Assembly: GCA_054600435.1 (NCBI GenBank)
Contig: BAAIJX010000006.1
Coordinates: 1-64,000, forward strand
Reading direction: 5' to 3'
Source: Neophaeotheca triangularis
Taxonomy: Eukaryota
DNA length: 64,000 nucleotides
This document shows positions 1 to 11,992 of this stretch, in pieces. Under the pieces are notes generated by a model. That model searched no databases and was not told the DNA's origin. It saw nothing but the letters and a program-made list of their open reading frames with translations. The position numbers and the translations under genes are program-made. Numbering within the stretch: position 1 is the stretch's first letter; each line of letters starts with the position of its first letter.

Positions 1-100
1 CTAACCCTAACCCTAACCCTAACCCTAACCCTAACCCTAACCCTAACCCTAACCCTAACCCTAACCCTAACCCTAACCCTAACCCTACCCTAACCCTAAC
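1..100 (+). repeat. Telomeric repeat (CCCTAA)n, chromosome end
   Basis: About 16 tandem CCCTAA units from base 1, with one 5-nt CCCTA variant at 83-87. This is the C-strand of the TTAGGG telomere typical of filamentous ascomycetes. Confidence 0.99.
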
Positions 101-775
101 TCTAGCTTAGATTCTAGCTCTATAGATATAGACTCTAAGGAAGAGAACCTAACGGCTACTAATATTATAGATCTAAGATCTAATTCTAGTACTAATAGTA
201 GTTATAATCCTACTAGATCTAAAACTAAAGAAAGATCTATCTCTAGATCTAGGAAAGAAAATAGACTAGAGACTAAGAAGCTTAAAGAGCTAGAGAATAC
301 TATAATAAGCCCTTCTAAAAATACACTAATAGAAGGCTATCTTAATAATATTAATAAAGATAAACCTAAAGATACTAGTAATTCTAGAGATATAGACTTA
401 GATCTAGATTTAGATCTAGATTCTTTCTTTACTATAGAGAGTAGTATAGAAGATAATATAAAAGTACCTAGCTCTAATAAAGAGCTAGATAATAGATCTC
501 TAAATCTAGAGAGTAACTTTAATAGATTTAGATTAGGATCTAGTATAGGGGGGCCTACTAGTAGTATTAAAGGACCTAGTAGAGTAGGATCTAAAAGATC
601 TTATAATAATAGAAATAGTAGCTCTAGTAGAGATCTAAGTCTAGAAAATAGAATAGAAGATAACTTTACTAATATAGAGGATGATCTTTCTAATACTAAG
701 ACTAAAGAGAAAAAGAAAGGAGGTAGACCTAAAAAGATTAAAACAGGAAAAAAGGGAAAGCCTAGAAAGGAGTAA
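83..775 (+). other. Start-less, stop-free 230-codon reading frame fused to the telomere (5'-truncated gene or element fragment) with a basic AT-hook-like C-terminus
   Basis: Manual translation from codon 83 gives PYPNPNSSLDSSSIDIDSKEENLTATNIIDLRSNS...EDDLSNTKTKEKKKGGRPKKIKTGKKGKPRKE, then TAA TAA at 773-778. No internal stop, and no Met, Gln, Trp, His or Cys codons. Confidence 0.7.
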
Positions 776-915
776 TAATCTTTTCTAGTCTTAGAATACT
801 TTATACTACTATATTTTAATACTCTTACTCTTTACTAATAGTCTTATTATTCCTTTTTTAATCTAAGTACTTAACTTACTATATCCTAATACTATAAATT
901 CCTAGTAATAATAAA

Positions 916-939
916 TCTTAACTCTAACTCTAACCCTAA
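916..939 (+). repeat. Degenerate interstitial telomere-like tract
   Basis: TCTTAA CTCTAA CTCTAA CCCTAA, in the same orientation as the terminal repeat. Confidence 0.65.
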
Positions 940-1111
940 TTTATGAAATTACTAAGTTTTAGTTTTACTTAAAAGAGTATAGATTTAGGGAGGGTTACTT
1001 CTTAGGAGTAAAGTCTATATTAGTAAAAGATATAGAAGTACTAAGCTTTTAAGATTACTTTATAGTATAAGGTAATTCTAATATATAGAGAATACTAAAG
1101 TAAGTAGGGAA

Positions 1112-2700
1112 GTTAAGATATATATAAAGCTATAGATTTATTAGATTATAACTAGTAGTTTCTATAGATACTATTAGGTCTAGTAAAGTCTACTAAGCTA
1201 GCTAGAAGTCCCTAGAAACTTCCTAGTACCTTTACTAGCCCTAAATTGTTAGAGTCTATAGTAAGTTCTAAGTCGATTTATATAGAGAGCTATAGATTTA
1301 CGACACCTTAGCTAGTAGTTTCTATAGATACTTTTAGGTCTAGTAAAGCCTATAAAACTAGCTAGAAGTCCCTAGAAACTTCCTAGTACCTTTACTAGCC
1401 CTAACTATCTAGAGTCTATAGTAAGTTCTTAGTCGATTTATGTAGAGGGCTATAGATTTACGACACCTTAGCTAGTAGTTTCTATAGATACCTTTAGGTC
1501 TAGTAAAGCCTATAAAACTAGCTAGAAGTCCCTAGGAACTTCCTACTACCTTTACTAATTCTTACTATTCTAGCTCTATAGTAAGTTCTTAGTCGATTTA
1601 TATAGAGAGCTATAGATTCACGACACCTTAGCTAGTAGTTTCTCTAGATACCTTTAGGTCTATTAAAGTCTATAAAACTAGCTAGAAGTCTCTAGAAACT
1701 TCCTACTACCTTTACTAATTCTTATTCTCTTAGGTTTATAGTAAGCTCTTAGTCGATTTATATAGAGAGCTATAGATTTACGACACCTTAGCTAGTAGTT
1801 TCTATAGATACTTTTAGGTCTAGTAAAGCCTATAAAACTAGCTAGAAGTCCCTAGAAACTTCTTAGTACCTTTACTAATACTAAGTTTCTAGAGTCTATA
1901 GTAAGTTCTTAGTCGATTTATGTAGAGGGCTATAGATTTACGACACCTTAGCTAGTAGTTTCTCTAGATACCTTTAGGTCTATTAAAGTCTATAAAACTA
2001 GCTAGAAGTCTCTAGAAACTTCCTACTACCTTTACTAATTCTTATTCTCTTAGGTTTATAGTAAGCTCTTAGTCGATTTATATAGAGAGCTATAGATTTA
2101 CGACACCTTAGCTAGTAGTTTCTATAGATACTTTTAGGTCTAGTAAAGCCTATAAAACTAGCTAGAAGTCCCTAGAAACTTCCTACTTCCTTTACTAATT
2201 CTTACTATTCTAGCTTAACCCTAAGTTCTTAGTCGATTTATATAGAGGGCTATAGATTTACTAGAACTTAGCTAGTAGTTTCTATAGGTCTTCTTAGGTA
2301 TAGTAAAGTCTATAAAGCTAGCTAGAGCTCCCTAGAAACTTTATAGTACTTTTAATAACTCTAAATACTAAGAGTCTATAGTAAGCTCTAAGTCGATTTA
2401 TATAGAAAGCTATAGATTTACTAGACCTTAACTAGTAGTTTCTATAGGTCTCTATAGATATACTAAAGCCTATAAAACTATCTAGAAGTCTATAGAAACT
2501 TCCTAATATCTTTTATATCTAATTCTTCCCCCTACCCTCTTATAAAAAGTATTACTAGGATTTATAGAGAGTTCTATAGATTTACGTTAGATACTAGCTC
2601 ATTTTCTATAGACTCTATAAACTATATAGATCCTAGGAAAACTAACTAGAAGTCCTAGAAAACTTCCTAGCTCTTATAAAAACTAATTTTCTTAATTTTG
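1112..2700. repeat. Subtelomeric tandem array, 160-bp unit, about 10 copies
   Basis: Anchor GTCGATTTA at 1272, 1432, 1592, 1752, 1912, 2072, 2232 and 2392 (exact 160-bp spacing). Degenerate flanking units near 1112 and 2552. Confidence 0.96.
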
Positions 2701-2727
2701 CCGGTAAAATAGAGTTATACCATTAGA

Positions 2728-3490
2728 GTGGTTATACTAGGCGCGATAGACGATAGCGAGGAGACAGAAGTAGGAGACGATATAGATAAGCGCTCCTCGC
2801 GTATCTCTAGTCGTAGTATTAGACGCTACTTAAGGCGCTAATCTCGTCATAATAGACGTAATTCTACTAGTATAGAAGAGAACGCCCTACCTATACCCGG
2901 TCTATATAAGAAGTAGTATATATAGTAGGAGGTTAAGAAGAATAGCGACGCGCCGCCTACCTCTAAGCGGTCTTTAAAGCTTTAGTCTCGCCTTTCGTTT
3001 TCCTGATCCCATCATAGCTCTATAGTGACTATAGACGGTAAAAAGCTACCTATACCTAGCCCTTAAGAGAACCGTCTACTATAGGAAGAGCTTTAGAAGC
3101 GCGCCCCTACTCCTTTTAACGCCGTAGCTACTAGGAATAGTGATTCTAAAGGGATCCGTAAGCGCTATTCGAGGGGCTTTAGACTCTTACGCTTACGCTA
3201 TAACTCTACGGCTATAGAACCCGACACCGCGTTACCCCTAATACCTAGACCCTTCGAACAATAGATGCTAGAAGATTAGCTAAACGAACACGCTCGTACC
3301 TAGTTCGATGTAGAGGAATCTTTACCTAGCCTTAAGGACACGAGTCGCCGTAGAAGGAATGCGAAATAGCGAGCCATTTTACCGCATACCGTTTCTTACA
3401 CAACCTAAGTTATGTAGAGCGAGGAGACTAATACTAGAGGCAAGTCTGGCTTAGCTACTATAGGGGACGTAGAATGTATTATAGAACTTG
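2728..3490 (+). pseudogene. RIP-inactivated gene relic (5'-truncated, unknown product)
   Basis: The frame starting at 2728 reads protein-like if TAG/TAA are restored to Gln (ENRLL*EEL*KRAPTPF; PFEQ*MLED*LNEHART*FDVEESLP). About 15 in-frame stops by manual count. Confidence 0.55.
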
Positions 3491-3566
3491 TAGTTCTTAT
3501 ATCGTGCTTAGATTATCAGCTAATGCCCGGAAAGCGGAATGTACATAGAAGAGAAATGTACCTCTA

Positions 3567-4810
3567 TTAGTTAAACAGTCGGTTCCCCCTCGACACCGTT
3601 TCATTCGTAGGCATCTCATGCCTCTCCTCTACTGTCTCTAGCCTAGTCGACGAAGCGCTCCTACCGAGTTCTACTTGCCCGTGTTTTGCTGGTAAGTCTT
3701 GCGCTTCGTTACCAAGTGGCGCTTCACTAGCTAGCTGTTCCATCTCGTGCCGCTGACCGTCGGTACCCAACATCGCTCCACGATCAAGCTCCTCCCCGTC
3801 AAGCTCAGCTAAGGTCGCCGGTTGGGGAGAAGAACTTGAGTGCTGGCGTCTGCGACGCCGCGGCCGCCACCACAGAAAATACATCAAGGCTACGATTAAG
3901 CCGATGAGGCATGGAACGCCAACACCGAGCCCTACGCCTAGAGCGGTGGAGTCTGCATCGGAGCCATTCGAGGCATCGTTTAGGGGATCTTGGCCGTTGC
4001 CGTTGCCGCTCTCGCTATCGTCTTCTTCGCCGGCATCCTCTTGCGAAGTTCTTTCGCCCAGGAGTACAGCATCCGCAAAGTCGTTAGCTATAGCACATTC
4101 GTATTCCTGTCTGACGGAGCCGCTAGTGTAGAGACCGTTGAGCGGGCTACAGGCCAGTTCGGCAGTTGAGCTTAAGATGAAATTCCCTCCGACAACAGTT
4201 AGAGCCGGGAAAGACGCACTGCAGCTAGCCGTCAGTTGAAAGTTCGATGCGCTTTCCACCTGTCACTCACTGAACACTTACTCGCTAATGGGCCCGTCGA
4301 TCTCAACGTTCCCGCTGACTCTCTCAAGTCGATAGAAAGTTCCAATCGATGTGAGGTTCATGTTGCTAGAGATGATAAAATCGCCATTAATGGTTTGCAG
4401 TTCCGGTAGCGTTTTCGAGAAGTTCCATACCGGTGAGATTGTGGGTATAAATCCCGTCGTAGTATTCGCTTGGTGTTACAAGAGCAATTCCGCCGGCATA
4501 TGTTTGACATCCAGAACCCAGAACGGCAGCTTCTCCGGTGCTTGTCACGGTGTAGGTGAGGCCAGACACCAAGCTGCAGCCTGGCCATCGAGCGACGTTA
4601 GCACCGACTCTATGCACAGGGTCTTTCCCTCAACTGCTCAACAGTTCAAGCGATGGCAGAAGCGAACGTCTCACCGTTAGTGACTACGACAGTCTCGTAC
4701 AAAGTGTCCGCGTAAGTTAGTATCTGCGTTCGCGTGTAGGACGTGCGCGAGGTGGTGCTGGCTACGCCTGTCATTGAGGCTGCTGTCGGGCTGGCCGTTG
4801 AAGCAGACAT
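3567..4810 (-). pseudogene. Ecm33/Sps2-like (receptor L-domain repeat) single-pass membrane protein, apparently frameshifted
   Basis: Segments CSLVSGLTYTV...GCQTYAGGIAL, PELQTINGDFIISSNMNLTSI...RLERVSGNVEIDGPIS and ASFPALTVVGGNFILSST; TM helix GVGLGVGVPCLIGLIVALMYFLWW followed by RPRRRRR; AELDG tail. Intron 4219-4281 (GTAAGT..CTGAC..CAG). The frame changes near 4405 with no convincing intron. Confidence 0.5.
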
Positions 4811-5855
4811 CGTAGTGAACTACTGTCGGGGCTCCTTGCTGAACGTTGATAGCAGCGCGCAAACTCAACAGACACAGAACAAACGCCTGCTGGGCACAAA
4901 CTCGGATAGGTCGGGCCTTAAAGGAAGAGAGAACCTTGGAAGGGAGCCAGTATTAATGCAAAAGGTCTGCAGGCCGTTCAGCTCCCCTCCGCTGCAATCT
5001 ACATTGCCGATGCCAATCGTACGTACATAGCTTCACACCTGATGAAATAGCTGAGCTACATGCGACATGCGGCGGGCGGGACTATGCCAACCAAGGAGGT
5101 TTTCGTCTACATTGTGTCACGACTCACAAGTGGTCTTGATTGCGATGCCCGTCCAGTCTTATTGGCTCTTGCATCGTGAACGGAGGAGGCGAAAATGAAG
5201 CGAATCTAGTGATATACGGCATCCGGGCATCTTGAACGGCCTGTCTTCTGCTACATGGAGGCAATTATCACACCGTGTGCAAGAGCCTGTAAACGAGCGT
5301 GAACGAGGTGGAGGCGCGACCGGTGAAGCGACTACCAAGCTGCAGCTTCGCTCGGCGAGCTCGGCCAAGCACATGTGACAGACGATCGTGGTTTGACACG
5401 TACGTACCGGTATGCGGTTGTCCTCGGGTAATGCAGATTGAATAGGTAGTCGTGTTGTTCAGAGAATAACCTTCGCAATAGTGAATGACACCTAGTGGTC
5501 CGATGGTGCGATGGCCGACAGTGAGGATTCGAATCCCATCGTCTTAAGGGCAGCGGTTGTCGGTAGCAACGTCCCACTATCCCCGGGCCTGAGTACCAAA
5601 CCGATATCCGGTTCTCGAGCATAGCCCCACGTGCCCCGACTCACACGGGAATCCAATCGGCCGTTCCACAGTGAAAGCACCGAGCGTTGATGTCGCATCT
5701 ACTGTATATCTATTGCCGAAGCAATTGCCTCGTAATGGTTAGGTAAAGGTGGCCAGATACCACCATCACCACCACTACCTGTGGCCCAGACAATGATAAG
5801 TAGTGAAGATTCGATCAACCGCACCAGGCTACCCGAGGACGACAACACGCAGACC

Positions 5856-7367
5856 ATGGCAGGAACCACCCACCGAAATGCAGTCCTCATGGTTGCCGAC
5901 GATCTCGGCCTCTCGCTTGGTTGCTACGGCGTCTCAAGCATCGAAACTCCAAATCTAGACAAACTCGCCGCCGACGGCACAAAGTTCACAAACGCATTCG
6001 CCAGCACAGCATCCTGCAGCGGCAGCAGATCAACGATATATTCCGGTCTTCACACCCACCAGAACGGTCAATACGGCCTCGCTCACGGTTGGAACCACTT
6101 CCAGACCCACGACCATGTCCAAACGCTCCCCAAGATTTTCAACTCCGCTGGCTTCCAGACTGGTATCATCGGCAAAGTGCATGTTGGACCCAAGTCAGTC
6201 TACCCATGGGAAGTCTACGAAGCCAGCCAAAGCCGTAATGTAGTGGAGAACGCACGGAGAGCTGGCGCTTTCTTCGACAAGGCGGCGGACACGAAACGGC
6301 CATTCCATCTGACCGTCGGCTTCCGGGATCCTCACAGAGACGGCACGAGAGGCGGGTTCGGCAATGACGAAGAGGACGTCAAGCATCTTGCTGTTCCCTA
6401 TTATCGAGAAAGCGAGGTAGAGATCCCCGAGTACCTTCCCGATGTCCCCGAGGTGCGCAAGGAGCTTGTAGAGTATTACAAGTCGGTTTCGCGATTAGAC
6501 ATCGGCGTCGGTCTCGTGTTGCAGGAGCTGCAAAAACGTGGGCTCGATCAAAACACCATGGTTGTCTTCGTAAGCGATAATGGAGCGCCCTTTGTCAATT
6601 CAAAGACCACGCTGTATGACGCTGGTGTGCGGTTGCCGATGCTCATGAAGATCCCCGGGCAGAAACGAAGCGCCATCAACCCAAATCTCGTCAGCTTTTT
6701 AGATCTCATCCCGTCGTTCATGGACTGGTGCAAGGTACAGAAACCCAGCCAAGAGCCAAACGAAGATGACATGACCTCCCCTGCACGAGAAGGCGACTCG
6801 GTACTCCCCATAGTCGACGCCAGCGATATTCGAGAAGACTGGAAATCCGACATTTTCGGTTCTCATACATTTCACGAAATACAAAACTGCTACCCAACGC
6901 GCTACATGCGCACACATAAGTACAAGTACCACCGCAACATCTTCTGGAAGCTCGACTTTCCCTTCGGAACTGATCTTTACGGCAGCCTTTCGTGGGAGGG
7001 CATTCGAAACTTGCCCCAACCACTGAAGCTGGGAGATCGTCGGATCGAGGATTACCTGCAGAGAGGGCCGGAACAGCTCTTCGACATGGAGAACGACCCG
7101 AAGGAATTGAATGATCTTGCCGGCAAGCCAGAATACGCCGAAATTGTTGACAGTATGCGGAAAGAGCTCGAAGCGTGGCAGTGGCGGACGCAAGATCCGT
7201 GGTTCTTCAGAGATGGCGTATCTCTTATGGCTTCGCGAGGATATCAGCAACAGGGTCTGCAGATGCGGGATCGCTTCGACTTTGATCCAAAGGATACGCA
7301 GACAGTCGGGAAGAGGCTGTGGTCGTCGGAGACTTTGCCGCAGTTTGAGGCTCCCAAGCTGGGCTGA
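5856..7367 (+). CDS. Sulfatase, N-sulfoglucosamine sulfohydrolase (sulfamidase)-like, intronless
   Basis: NAVLMVADDLG, TASCSGSRSTIYSG (sulfatase Cys motif variant), GKVH, DPH, FVSDNG, C-terminal EQLFDMENDPKELNDLA. Alternative upstream ATG at 5793. Confidence 0.88.
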   Translation: MAGTTHRNAVLMVADDLGLSLGCYGVSSIETPNLDKLAADGTKFTNAFASTASCSGSRSTIYSGLHTHQNGQYGLAHGWNHFQTHDHVQTLPKIFNSAGFQTGIIGKVHVGPKSVYPWEVYEASQSRNVVENARRAGAFFDKAADTKRPFHLTVGFRDPHRDGTRGGFGNDEEDVKHLAVPYYRESEVEIPEYLPDVPEVRKELVEYYKSVSRLDIGVGLVLQELQKRGLDQNTMVVFVSDNGAPFVNSKTTLYDAGVRLPMLMKIPGQKRSAINPNLVSFLDLIPSFMDWCKVQKPSQEPNEDDMTSPAREGDSVLPIVDASDIREDWKSDIFGSHTFHEIQNCYPTRYMRTHKYKYHRNIFWKLDFPFGTDLYGSLSWEGIRNLPQPLKLGDRRIEDYLQRGPEQLFDMENDPKELNDLAGKPEYAEIVDSMRKELEAWQWRTQDPWFFRDGVSLMASRGYQQQGLQMRDRFDFDPKDTQTVGKRLWSSETLPQFEAPKLG

Positions 7368-7517: not shown

Positions 7518-9730
7518 TCAACCAATAGGTCTAGAAAAAGATCCGTAGTCGAAATCGTTCGTCGGGCCAAAGTACGCATCGAATGTGCCGTTGAGTTCAG
7601 ATTGACCAGGGCCCCGCAAAACAGACATGAGCCAAGAGTCGTCTAGTTGCCCCCAATTTTCACCCATTAAATTTGTCTGTGATTGTTGTCCACCTCCACT
7701 AAAGACATTTTGAGGATACTGCTGTTCGACTGGTGCGAGTTGCCCTGTCTGCATGGTCGGCGTAGGCGGGTTGTTGGCGGAGGGCGTGGGTAAGCTGTTA
7801 GGAGTGGCGAAAAAGAGTCCTTCGCCACTGCGGTCCACGTTGGCGGCATCGAGGACATTGTATCTTGAGAACTTGTGGGGCATTGCCGGAGACATGGTGT
7901 CGGGAGTTCCGTGGGAGGTTTCTGGCTGCGGTGACTGTTGGCGCGACTGGGAGACAGGTGGTGCGCCATGGTCCAGGAGTCGTTGGATGTCGCGCTGGAT
8001 GGGACTGACTGCAGGGTTGTATAAACGCAGTTTCTCCACCATGCGAAGGCAGTGTGACACGGCTGTCTTGATCTCCATTGGTGCTGGCGGTGTCTCTTTC
8101 ATGTACACAGATCGAGACACGATGTTAGCGCTTTGATATGCGGAGAGAGCGATGCTCGGCGCTATCAAAGGCGTTTCTGGGTCGAGATCCACAAGATGTC
8201 CCAGAAGGCCCGCAACAGAATAGGCATGAGCAACGCACTGGGACATGCAGTGCTTTGCAAAGTCTTGAGGAATCCGGTAGAGGAGACGAGAGGAGCTCGT
8301 TTCTCGGAAACCAGGTGTGAGAAAGCGGTAGAGGTCGCAGTGGCATTGATGCCAGGTAATGTGTATGAGACAGTAAGGTGATAGCGAGGATGAGCACGAG
8401 CGTAGCGACAAGTTCTTCGAATTGAGCACAATGTTTTCCGGCCACGCTTTTTGTTGCTGGTCTAGCTCGAACTCGAAGCCTTGGATCGCCCGTTGCATTT
8501 CAGAAGCATCTGCTTCGATACCTGTTACGGATTTGGTGTAGCGCAGAATGCGATCCCGTATGTCGACGACTTTCATGAAGAAGCCCAAGATACTTGGCGT
8601 AGCTGATGCGGGTGATAGGTTGGACCGCAGGGTGAGTTTCGTCGGCGGCTGATCCAGTTCGAAGGTTTGCTCGTCCGAGGGCAGCCAGAGACGAATCGAC
8701 GGAGCACGGCAGAGAGTGAGGTCATCTATGCCACCAGACATGAAGGTGTCTGTAACGTAAATGGCCCATACAAGCCGTCTACGTGACTCTTGGGCCAGGA
8801 ACGGAAGTGAAGGGTCCTCGTAGTTCAGCCGCAGCAAAAAGGCCATGCGCGTGCAGAGGGCGAAAAGAGACACAACCCGTCTGGAGTCACCCGTGGCAAG
8901 CCGGTAGAGTACGACTAATTGCAGTGCCTGAACATGCACCACAGAAGGCCGGGTTAGAGATAGCAGGATATCATGCTCCGCCTCATCAGCTCGCCGTGCG
9001 CCTTCTTCTTTGAGATCGGGGTGGTGAAGCGATGCCATGGCACATACAGCGCGCAACAGGCCAGCATCGAGCTGACCGTGCTGCTTTTGGTTCATGAAGA
9101 CGGCTTTGTGCAGAAAATTGCACTCCGGATGTGGATGAACGGCGCGGAAGAAGGTCTGCACGAGCACGCTGATCGGGAAACGTTCGTCTTCGGTAGACGG
9201 CATGCTTGTCCGGTGCGAGGTTGCTGAAGGGGCACCCGTTGTTGCTCTGATCGCAGTCGCATGCTCCCCTCCCGAGGGCGTGAAGGGTGGCGCTGAAGAG
9301 GCGGCGGCAGCGGGCTGGCTCCACGGCTCAGAACTGGACGGCGCAAAGGCCTGAGATCCAAGCCTGGTATCCTCGTAAACGCAAGGCACACCTTTCTCAC
9401 GGCAGCGTAAACAGTCAGGCTGCTGATCGGTGCACCGTGACTTGTGGCGTTGACACGCCTGGCATGCTAGGCGTGTTCGTTTGCGCGGTGGAGGACCGCT
9501 GGGGACAGCGCTAGGACTCCCCGGCGACGCGGCCACCATGAAGTTGCACGCAAACCCTAGACGAACACAGGTCTCACAGCCAGCTCCATTGCCGTCTTGC
9601 GACTGTGGCCGACCGGGGCACCGTACCTGTTGGCGTGGTCAGAATGAACGTTGACAAAGGTATGCAGTGGCAGCTTCGGCGGGGTTCCGCATCTGACCTT
9701 TCTGTGTCTACATTGGATGCAAGTCGTCAT
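7518..9730 (-). CDS. Zn(II)2Cys6 transcription factor with two zinc clusters and a fungal TF middle domain
   Basis: Exon 1 (9698-9730, MTTCIQCRHRK), intron 9627-9697, then VRCPGRPQSQDGNGAGCETCVRLGFAC in frame with ORF 7518-9539. That ORF holds ACQACQRHKSRC..CLRCREKGVPCVY and ESRRRLVWAIYVTD. Confidence 0.9.
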
Positions 9731-10148
9731 CTCGACATGCCGCGACAAACAGCTGGTAATGAATTGAAATGGAAATTTTCAAGTAGGGAATGTCGCGCTC
9801 AACAAGGAAGTTTGAAGGGTCTAAGGTAGGTAGGTAAGTAGGTACTTATGCAGCTTGTGTAACGGTGGTGGACACGATCGCGCCATGGGGTTGCTTCGAA
9901 AGCTTACAGTAGGTAAGTATGTAACAAGCTTGCCCTGCGAGAACGTCCACGGGTGAGACCAGAAAGCTCGGCGTGTGAGGAACGTTCACACTGTCTTTAT
10001 TTTCAACGTCCACTTAAATACAACAAGAAGCCTGTCGGTGAGATATGCTCTTCAAGACGAAACTAGAATGGACGTGGCGTGACGATGGTGAGATTACGAC
10101 AGAGGAACGGAGGAAATTACAGCTACGACTGATCGCTCTTCCACCAAT

Positions 10149-11992
10149 CTACCGCCCCTCTTCATATTGAGAGACAATCCTGTCCTTCTCCAACTCCTTG
10201 TTCCTGTCCAGCGCCTCTGTGTCCCCGCTCTTCTCAATCTCAGCCAATGCCCGAGCAGCACCATGAGTCTGGTAGTTCTTGAACTGCCACGCCCGCAGCT
10301 TAGCGCCAAAAAGCTCGTCGACTTCCTCCAATGTTCGGCCCTGGCAGATGATAAGCACTCGAGAACAAACGACATGCTGGAGACGAGTTCCAAGCCTACC
10401 TTGAGTTCTGGAAAGAACAGCACTGACCATACAACAGAGAATGCAGCAACCGAGCCAAAGATCCATCCTATATTAGAGCCCATGGAGGGCAAAAGGTATG
10501 GTGTGACGAATGTGACGAGGAACGCTGCGACGACATCCATGGCGGTACCAAAAGCCTAGTCAGTAGTCAGTGTATGCCCGGGCACCCGCAGTCACGAAAC
10601 GAGGCCTACCAAAGTCTTCTTACGCAACCGCACACCTCCAATCTCGGCTCCGGTCAGGAAGGCAGTGTTTGAGGCCGAAATACGTGTGAAGGCCGGGAGG
10701 AGGACGAAACAAGCTACCAGAGTGTTTGTCTCGTTTTGGTTGGGGTTGTTTGTCAGACCCACTCCAGATCCCAGATAGAGCAGGAAGGCGCAAGCGGCGC
10801 TCGCGTAGATCATCAGCGGTCGACGGCCAGCGATATCAAAAAGGACGATACCAAGTCCACCGCCAAACACCCCTACTGCTTGGCCAATGATTGTGTAAGT
10901 GAAGGACATGGCTCCGAGGCCTTCCTGAACGTAAAAGGTCGGGGCGTAAGATTGAACAAACTGGTTGCCGTTGGTCTGCTCGAGGATGAAGAGGGTTGTA
11001 GCAATCTGGTGAAGATCATGTCAGCGGAGGCCCTACTCCATCCGATTCTCTCCGTACTCACCCAAGTCTGCCTGATGTGTCCGCGCCGGAAAAGATCCAA
11101 CCAAGAAGCTGTCTCGGTCGCCAGACTCTCCTCAACCACCAACTCCAAAGCATCAGCCTCGGCAGCAGTCGCTCCGTTCGCGACCTCTTCCTTGCGGCGA
11201 ATCTTGTCCAAATTCTTCTTAGCCTCCTGCGGCCTACCCTTGAAAATGAGCCATCGCGGCGACTCCGGTGTCAAGGGTACCAAGGCAAGGATGCCGACGG
11301 CAGGAATGAATTGCATAGCGGTGGGAATCATCCAGCCCTCTCTTCCAAGGTGCGTCGCGTAAGCTCGAGACATTCCCGCTCCCCACAAGTTTCCTAGACC
11401 CGTGAAGAACATGATAGATCCGGACAGAAGACCTCTGCAGGCAGGCGGTGATGTCTCCGCGTTGTACCCGGGAACCACATTTTCCACCAAACCAACGGCG
11501 AAGTAGGCCACAAGGCGGCCGGCAGTGAACTGCCCCCAGTGATAGGCAGTGATTTCAACTGTATTGCGGTCAGCATTCGCAGAGTTTTCAAACTGTTCAA
11601 CGGCGAATGGCAGCCTTACTTATAACACCAATACTCTGGATGATGGCGACAGCGTACATGCTTTTCTTGAAACCAAGTCGCTCGATGAAGGCATCTGCAC
11701 CAAGGCAGCCCAGTAGTTTGCCAATCCATGGTAGGCTGTTCATCAAAGATTTCCTCACAGCCGGCAGAATATACTCATCCCCGTCGAGCTCTCCAAAGCG
11801 GCGGAGGAAAGAAGGTAGAGCTTGCAATGAGCCGAAAGATCCAGTATCACTACGGGCATGTTAGTGTGTGGTCAAGGAACGGCTGCGATGCTAGAGGGGT
11901 CCTCACAGGCCAAAGAGAATGGCGCCCTGCAAGAAGACCAGGCTGTTGAAGATGATATACGGAGTCAACTGGCTCCATGTATCCTTGGCCAT
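10149..11992 (-). CDS. MFS sugar porter family transporter (multi-exon)
   Basis: ATG at 11992 (MAKDTWSQLTPYII). Motifs ERLGFKK, YNAETSPPACRG, PESPRWL, DIAGRRPL, FFPELK/GRTLEEVDELF. GT-AG introns join the ORF fragments. Confidence 0.88.

Follow-up and report, generated by a model that had tools for sequence, protein, structure and literature searches.

The stretch of DNA analysed here (the window, 64,000 nt) is the left end of contig C6 of Neophaeotheca triangularis, in an assembly of 25.4 Mb and 136 contigs; coordinates are window positions unless another contig or locus is named. Positions 1-3400 are RIP-saturated, with CA+TG nearly absent (3 CpA/TpG versus 121 TpA in 105-775) and a GC content of 20-45%, as against 54% further in. 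Telomere repeat, gene content, and mutation pattern would all suit a filamentous fungus. The first host genes lie at 3567-4262 (-), a membrane-protein 3' exon with a transmembrane segment and an RRR motif, and at 5736-7367 (+), a sulfatase (Pfam E 6e-38). The contig opens with a telomere array, called at 1-104 (17.5 units), and a stop-free frame of 230 aa reads inward from it at 83-775 (+). Both had been described in a sequence-only reading of this DNA, as had the T-rich tract of about 140 bp that follows the frame, and all three are present. The frame is far longer than chance would give, since no stop-free run exceeded 98 codons when 105-939 was dinucleotide-shuffled 1000 times, and the fragment has no Pfam match at E ≤ 1, in agreement with the earlier statement that it carries no RT. 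Genome-wide, a four-unit telomere pattern gives 615 matches, from which we estimate ∼35-40 telomere arrays at ∼16 matches per array, which is many for 25 Mb. The parts of the window copy are collected in Table 1.

Table 1. Parts of the element copy at the left end of the window and its flank
Feature	Position	Strand	Basis or remark
Terminal telomere (CCCTAA)n	1..99	+	Caps a break inside the element; the C123 copy goes on with element sequence there
CTAA, 4-nt overlap of telomere repeat and element at the healing junction	96..99	+	The C123 alignment begins at window 96 = C123 1021
Recombinase gene 3' remnant, last ∼225 codons (low-complexity Ser/Asn/Lys tail) and stop	100..775	+	Translation, C123 comparison
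Basic C-terminal GRP-type motif, which we take to be AT-hook-like (no Pfam hit)	710..772	+	Found in 12/18 helicase-less clade members
T-rich, G-poor post-stop sequence, likely 3' UTR	776..915	+	46% T and 4% G, versus 27% T in the ORF
Degenerate telomere-like tract, internal to the element and marking no boundary	919..939	+	3.5 units, 2 mismatches in 21 nt
Element spacer common to C123	940..1118	.	Alignment
160-bp tandem array, 8.7 copies, part of the element	1119..2513	.	Repeat search, C123 alignment
Terminal segment	2514..2740	+	Conserved end 2697-2740, last letters TAG, at 9 genome places
Flank outside the element, RIP-affected	2741..3500	.	Matches this contig alone

A longer copy lies on contig C123. 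BLAST of the window against C123 returns a single alignment, 95.4% identical over 96-2740, with 94-100% identity in each 100-nt block over 96-1118. The C123 copy has 525 open codons after its own telomere, and the window tail is 93% identical in amino acid sequence to residues 299-525 of this frame. The tyrosine-recombinase (YR) domain described below is present in the C123 copy and missing from the window copy, which cannot itself make the enzyme. The 4-nt overlap of telomere repeat and element at the window junction would fit the expectation for telomerase healing. The sequence-only reading took 916-939 to be the 3' end of a telomere-inserted element and a former chromosome end. A degenerate telomere tract is indeed there and is nonrandom (equalled in 0/200 Markov simulations and in 0/6 other RIP regions, both strands), but it is not the edge of the element: it is letter-identical in the C123 copy, and the identity runs on beyond it (57/61 over 940-1000), so that homology continues through 939 with no boundary, the outcome by which the sequence-only reading was to be refuted. 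Nor do tandem copies parted by CCCTAA, which that reading named as support, occur in the 32 contig-end and nearby stretches scanned. The tract is best read, by analogy, as an embedded telomere-like motif of the kind described for helicase-associated repeats in the available part of the Magnaporthe paper (PMC1635262). Short internal (CCCTAA)3 runs are also found in other subtelomeres (L048, on C37 at 851-868 from the end; L105:2316-2333, on C99) and are possibly relics of older ends. Arrays with a period of 160-162 bp lie beside genes of this family at unrelated loci (window 1119-2513, L073:1678-4462, L078:321-1034, L084:8402-8870), and no sequence similarity was found among the arrays of these loci. 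A period of 160-162 bp is close to the nucleosome repeat length.

The inner end of the element, which we call A, was found at the base equivalent to 2740. Searches with window 940-3600 and with 2640-2745 place this end at nine sites, with a scored match at the 2740 end in 9/9, and the flanks beyond it are mutually unrelated from the first base; at two of the nine, on C58 and C4, only ∼120 nt are shared, at 84-86%. Four A copies are telomere-capped at different points, namely at C123 coordinates 121, 1021 (the window), 3081, and 3341. What the earlier reading expected, a fixed 3' boundary with variable 5' truncation, is borne out in its pattern, although the boundary lies at 2740 and not at 916-939; it was also right that the window copy is part of a repeated element of chromosome ends, truncated at its 5' side and capped by telomere, of which a longer version (C123) exists and whose truncation points vary. 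Eight further places carry a related end, type B. A and B ends have two short end motifs in common, and B copies likewise show nested truncations capped by telomere (C10, C103, C131, and C135). All 17 ends finish in TAG followed by a purine, and the A end reads CTAG in 9/9, after a short hairpin-like stretch. Each of the 17 lies ≤10 kb from a contig end, nine on ends with a telomere array and eight on contig ends without telomere. That all 17 point inward was rejected as independent evidence, since any copy that has been cut within its body must point inward; at the eight telomere-less contig ends the orientation is attributable to assembly breaks. Type B (L107:2896-5595 on C104, L120 on C131, L103 on C103) is itself RIP-saturated and at least 5.8 kb long, with an inverted repeat near the end, a 62-bp array, and a small intron-containing gene for a Lys/Glu-rich, coiled-coil-like protein. 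No recombinase was found in B; its longest stretch (∼5.8 kb, C104 and C131) is without a YR match.

Several junctions can be read against their targets. The C123 end directly adjoins the 3' part of a sugar-transporter gene in mid-frame (Sugar_tr E 2e-10, L003:3666-4016), the 5' part of which is not among the stretches examined. Because a paralogue has Glu before the break, the overlap at this junction may be AG alone. A locus on C129 (L127, ∼760-1530) was considered as the partner and rejected, as the 5' transporter fragment found there is a different one, ends sooner, and lacks an element end. An empty site at C20, read from another copy of the 160-bp repeat, ends in TAG, and one at C10 ends in CCGG, the pre-RIP form of CTAG. 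The (T)AG overlap with the target is in each case read at single ends. Data from other runs were used selectively: X1 is a possible source of the assembly and was left out as support, as were X3 and X6, which cover small parts, whereas X2 comes from a different study. One X2 contig carries 1,355 nt more 5' of the C123 telomere junction, of which 30 letters continue the frame and look like those of the relatives, and in a second X2 contig an A-type end runs into the A frame at 1373. At C20, at C4, and in X2, a B or A end lies atop an older A copy with the same polarity. Neither a two-ended copy nor an N-terminal stretch of the gene was found in this assembly, which for that reason offers no donor and no empty/filled pair from sister strains. 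Chromosome fission, with A and B flanks as the two halves of one site, was rejected because no pairing appeared among the stretches examined.

The C123 frame has no Pfam matches, and homology searches with it returned 14 long proteins and 237 representatives at E ≤ 0.001. The closest relatives, 45-57% identical, consist of OrsD/C2H2 fingers (where the N-terminus is known), the present domain, and a low-complexity tail; more distant relatives carry DEAD and Helicase_C besides. OrsD/C2H2 matches are found in clade members P0002, P0003, P0021, P0031, P0032, and P0045, and in this genome the zinc fingers have been truncated away. An AlphaFold2 model of residues 1-246, built from 82 sequences, has a pLDDT of 86.6 and a pTM of 0.83. 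In VIA-align the first nine matches (Z 11.4-8.0) come from Xer, Cre, integron, and phage integrases, with 4a8e (Xer) as the best (Z 11.4, rmsd 3.4, 149 aligned); almost every chain at ranks 10-27 belongs to topoisomerase IB, integrase, Flp, or Ndc10, and unrelated rows appear from Z ∼3.4. The top rows in Foldseek are Cre and XerA, with a best E of 7.4e-3 and none at E ≤ 0.001. In the Atlas the top clusters are unnamed (0.94-0.96), and Phage_integrase with NDC10_II at 0.84 serves as a lead. A domain-centred profile search of solved structures gave no recombinase and nothing meaningful, and the full-alignment profile search was discarded, as it recovered helicases alone through the helicase part of the relatives. 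No DUF3435, DUF3504, Phage_integrase, or Crypton-type Pfam match was found in 30 alignment members at E ≤ 0.1. With active-site roles assigned by motif order, R26 is conserved in 72/73 aligned relatives, K64 in 73/73, R151 in 73/73, and Y204 in 72/73; position 195, His in C123, is His in 51 and Arg in 20 of the 73. The His of HxxR is Lys in C123 and varies across the family. By its modelled fold, the C123 frame encodes a YR domain in which R-K-R-H-Y is kept, and catalysis is predicted.

A domain tree, drawn from one domain profile with 73 of the 82 sequences (nine with an incomplete domain left out) and 224 columns, places 18 helicase-less proteins, C123 included, in one clade (SH-like 0.97) nested among helicase-bearing ones. 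The window frame stops at 775 without a RecQ helicase, and 0/18 clade members have one. Eight helicase-less rows fall outside the clade; six of them end 0-84 aa past the domain and look like fragments, and the other two are a single-frame piece from C31 and P0043. In intact relatives the protein runs from C2H2/OrsD zinc fingers through the YR domain and a low-complexity linker to an AT-hook-like tail; neither a helicase nor an RT is encoded. One relative, L071, has the same order of gene, basic tail, T-rich stretch 3' of the stop, tandem repeat, sharp end, and host DNA; its gene is broken by stops and the locus is without a telomere tract. Within one AT-rich block at L071, a TLH-type gene at 1-3643 (-) stands back to back with the helicase-less YR gene at 7943-11676 (+), with arrays between, and this two-gene block is possibly one composite element or the product of nested arrivals. 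Contig C31 holds two un-RIPed TLH-type genes with YR and helicase parts, L065/L095 (C31:255098-256585) and L036 (C31:215357-217422), both with an in-frame TAG within the matches. One of the two reads telomere-ward and is cut by the telomere inside its helicase; the other lies ∼40 kb inward.

The open frame is unusual for sequence so heavily mutated. In C123 it contains 9 CA+TG where ∼157 are expected; Gln and Trp are absent, Cys and Met occur once each, and its two His codons both lie in the YR motifs YRH and GH. All of its 21 in-frame TAx codons are Tyr (21/21), whereas in three RIP neighbours 52-62% of TAx triplets are TAA or TAG. In nine RIP regions nearby, stops make up 6-15% per frame, and the longest open runs reach 46-118 codons, or 170 in the least mutated. 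Un-RIPed clade members have ∼23 Gln+Trp per 525 aa, from which it would follow that neutral RIP should have left many stops. The pattern extends to metagenome loci: frames of 1,142-1,745 codons stay open in 7/23, where CA+TG falls to 0.03-0.47 of the expected number; in the five such frames inspected, His is mostly in zinc-finger, YR, and DExH motifs. Gln+Trp is below 1.2% in 20 of 82 proteins of at least 700 aa. Both this share and the 7/23 are biased upward, the query being itself RIP-type. The tails of C6 and C123, both truncated copies, differ at 6 synonymous and 14 nonsynonymous codons, so that the tail bears no sign of constraint since these copies split. Most likely, judging from sequence, the gene of the YR lineage stayed readable with almost no RIP target left. 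A search of sequencing runs listed no RNA run containing the element sequence, which has no bearing on expression.

Set beside known systems, A comes close to the telomere-linked helicase (TLH) genes of Magnaporthe (TLH1, PMC1635262), Fusarium (TLHcr, 10.1101/2024.02.27.582403), and Botrytis (BcTLH, 10.1101/2022.03.07.483234), insofar as the accessible portions of these papers describe them. It shares with them N-terminal C2H2/OrsD fingers and a conserved ∼250-aa domain; the published layout is fingers, conserved domain, helicase (10.1101/2024.02.27.582403, in the part at hand). Like the TLH subtelomere core, as far as these portions go, it is AT-rich, carries tandem arrays, stops at a distinct inner boundary, and shows nested truncations capped by telomere. 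It differs in having no RecQ helicase, with the basic AT-hook-like tail in its place, and in reading away from the telomere, whereas the 3' end of Magnaporthe TLH faces the telomere in the available text (PMC1635262). The TLH papers, in the portions available, give the "TLH domain" no function, and "recombinase" has 0 occurrences in the two that were searched. The relatives of A are a helicase-less clade inside a TLH-type family, with a putative tie to the published TLH proteins through domain order. With Cryptons and Starships, on the available text of two papers (PMC13465315, PMC10104507), A shares a YR with R-K-x-R-H-Y, the absence of RT, and short homology of end and target, in A at single ends, in place of a true duplication. 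It belongs to a different YR family, as judged by the absent DUF3435, DUF3504, and Phage_integrase Pfam matches, and its copies cluster at contig or chromosome ends, with one end per copy and the 3' end of the gene toward the known terminus. The catalytic-domain fold (Z 11.4 to 8) and residue order are those of Xer, Cre, and phage integrases (PDB 4a8e, 5hxy, 4crx), although identity is 10-18%, the HxxR His is replaced, and zinc fingers and a long tail are added. Most likely A resembles a Crypton/Starship-type YR element in mechanism and is a descendant of the TLH family. As these groups are defined it belongs to neither, because it has no helicase and its YR is of a different family, and it also falls outside the telomeric retroelements.

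We propose, by analogy and with a probability of about 0.7, that window 100-2740 is the eroded inner end of a YR-mobilised DNA element, A, that was joined to new chromosome ends and then telomere-healed. The proposal builds on what is directly established, namely the modelled YR fold with its residues, the base-exact shared end, the unrelated flanks, the nested telomere-healed truncations, and the open frame. The recombinase would bind the conserved end, and a 2-4 bp (T)AG core would serve to join that end to a fresh site close to a chromosome end, a step that we infer from Cryptons and Starships. The outer DNA would then be absent either because a telomere-bearing donor end was swapped in by one crossover or because a two-ended insertion was later eroded; we lean slightly toward the one-crossover end replacement. 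Telomerase would heal successive breaks, as at 96-99, and the lineage may have outlasted repeated RIP through selection against mutations that make stops or remove the key His. A more specific version, possible rather than probable, would make A a one-ended, telomere-capped class of recombinase element in which a single site-specific crossover swaps the capped end and the old tip is discarded. Such a class would be TLH-derived by helicase loss, and its functional gene would be RIP-proof, with nearly no CpA/TpG and, with them, nearly no Gln, Trp, or non-essential His, Cys, and Met. The absence of a two-ended copy, the 5.8 kb of B without YR, and the ends placed atop older A copies in the same polarity point toward this class.

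A sub-case of the same YR-element explanation holds that a single Crypton/Starship-like element of at least 11 kb, with A as its right end and B as its left, is inserted near telomeres either way round and terminally eroded, with no end-replacement step. We regard it as tentative. The common end motifs, the shared TAG and purine, the 9:8 balance of A and B ends, and the nested telomere-capped truncations in B all point toward B as a left end, and Cryptons and Starships have short target homology at both ends in the available text (PMC13465315, PMC10104507). However, 0/17 ends have a partner on the same copy, the longest B stretch has no YR match, tblastx gives no match of B to the 23 metagenome loci, and no A flank and B flank are rejoined as one empty site among the stretches examined. 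Passive spread of a host subtelomere block by ectopic recombination or break-induced replication, with the YR gene as a passenger or a host telomere factor, seems improbable. It has parallels in the portions of two papers available: Magnaporthe TLH ends share distal blocks, a distinct inner boundary, and nested truncations with no claim of mobility in that text (PMC1635262), and the Botrytis paper proposes end-to-end recombination (10.1101/2022.03.07.483234). Homology-driven copying, however, requires shared sequence past the junction, and the nine flanks are unrelated from the first base; one of these flanks consists of the interior of a host gene, and an X2 flank is the frame of the element itself.

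Two further classes of element share features of the locus. Helitrons insert between A and T, whereas at the A end the next base is a purine in 9/9 and never T. The encoded protein is moreover a YR, no RepHel is seen in the part available, and CTAG is also the commonest RIP product here. A Helitron-like element is therefore very unlikely, although CTAG in 9/9 after the hairpin-like stretch would suit the CTRR end rule as quoted in the accessible part of 10.1101/2025.11.13.688278. The telomere-targeting retroelement of the sequence-only reading (MoTeR, FoTeR, or Penelope-like), which would end 3' at 916-939, is rejected as the least credible. The inward gene, the telomere-capped 5' truncation, the T-rich post-stop stretch, and the nonrandom telomere-like tract all suit such an element, and MoTeR and FoTeR non-LTR retrotransposons resemble A, in the available text (PMC8381367, PMC12857005), in chromosome-end location, truncation, and tandem repeats. 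MoTeR and FoTeR, according to the same text, encode RT and insert into telomere repeats, whereas A has no RT and its fixed end adjoins nine unrelated non-telomeric sequences (9/9). That reading anticipated an RT domain in longer copies; the longer copy instead has a tyrosine-recombinase fold, and no RT family was found in the 525-aa C123 frame (from C123 position 121 on) or in 19 longer relatives, 15 of them helicase-less or TLH-type.

We found no literature that joins "telomere-linked helicase" with "tyrosine recombinase" and, by titles and abstract openings in a largely open-access library, none on this element or on RIP-saturated intact recombinase genes. To the extent that no published description was found, three things are new: the helicase-less clade, exact junctions with a core at nine places, and frames that stay intact in spite of RIP saturation. 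They offer a testable mechanism for an old puzzle, the TLH-type blocks that lie at many fungal chromosome ends with one sharp inner boundary: the A boundary is base-exact at nine sites, there is a defined core, and the recombinase comes without a helicase to confound an assay. Mobile genes may outlast RIP by exhausting its targets; as RIP is generally regarded as fatal to repeats, AT-rich "RIP relics" risk being dismissed too soon. If end replacement is true, it would provide a route to the loss of subtelomeric host genes, and one copy adjoins a cut sugar-transporter gene.
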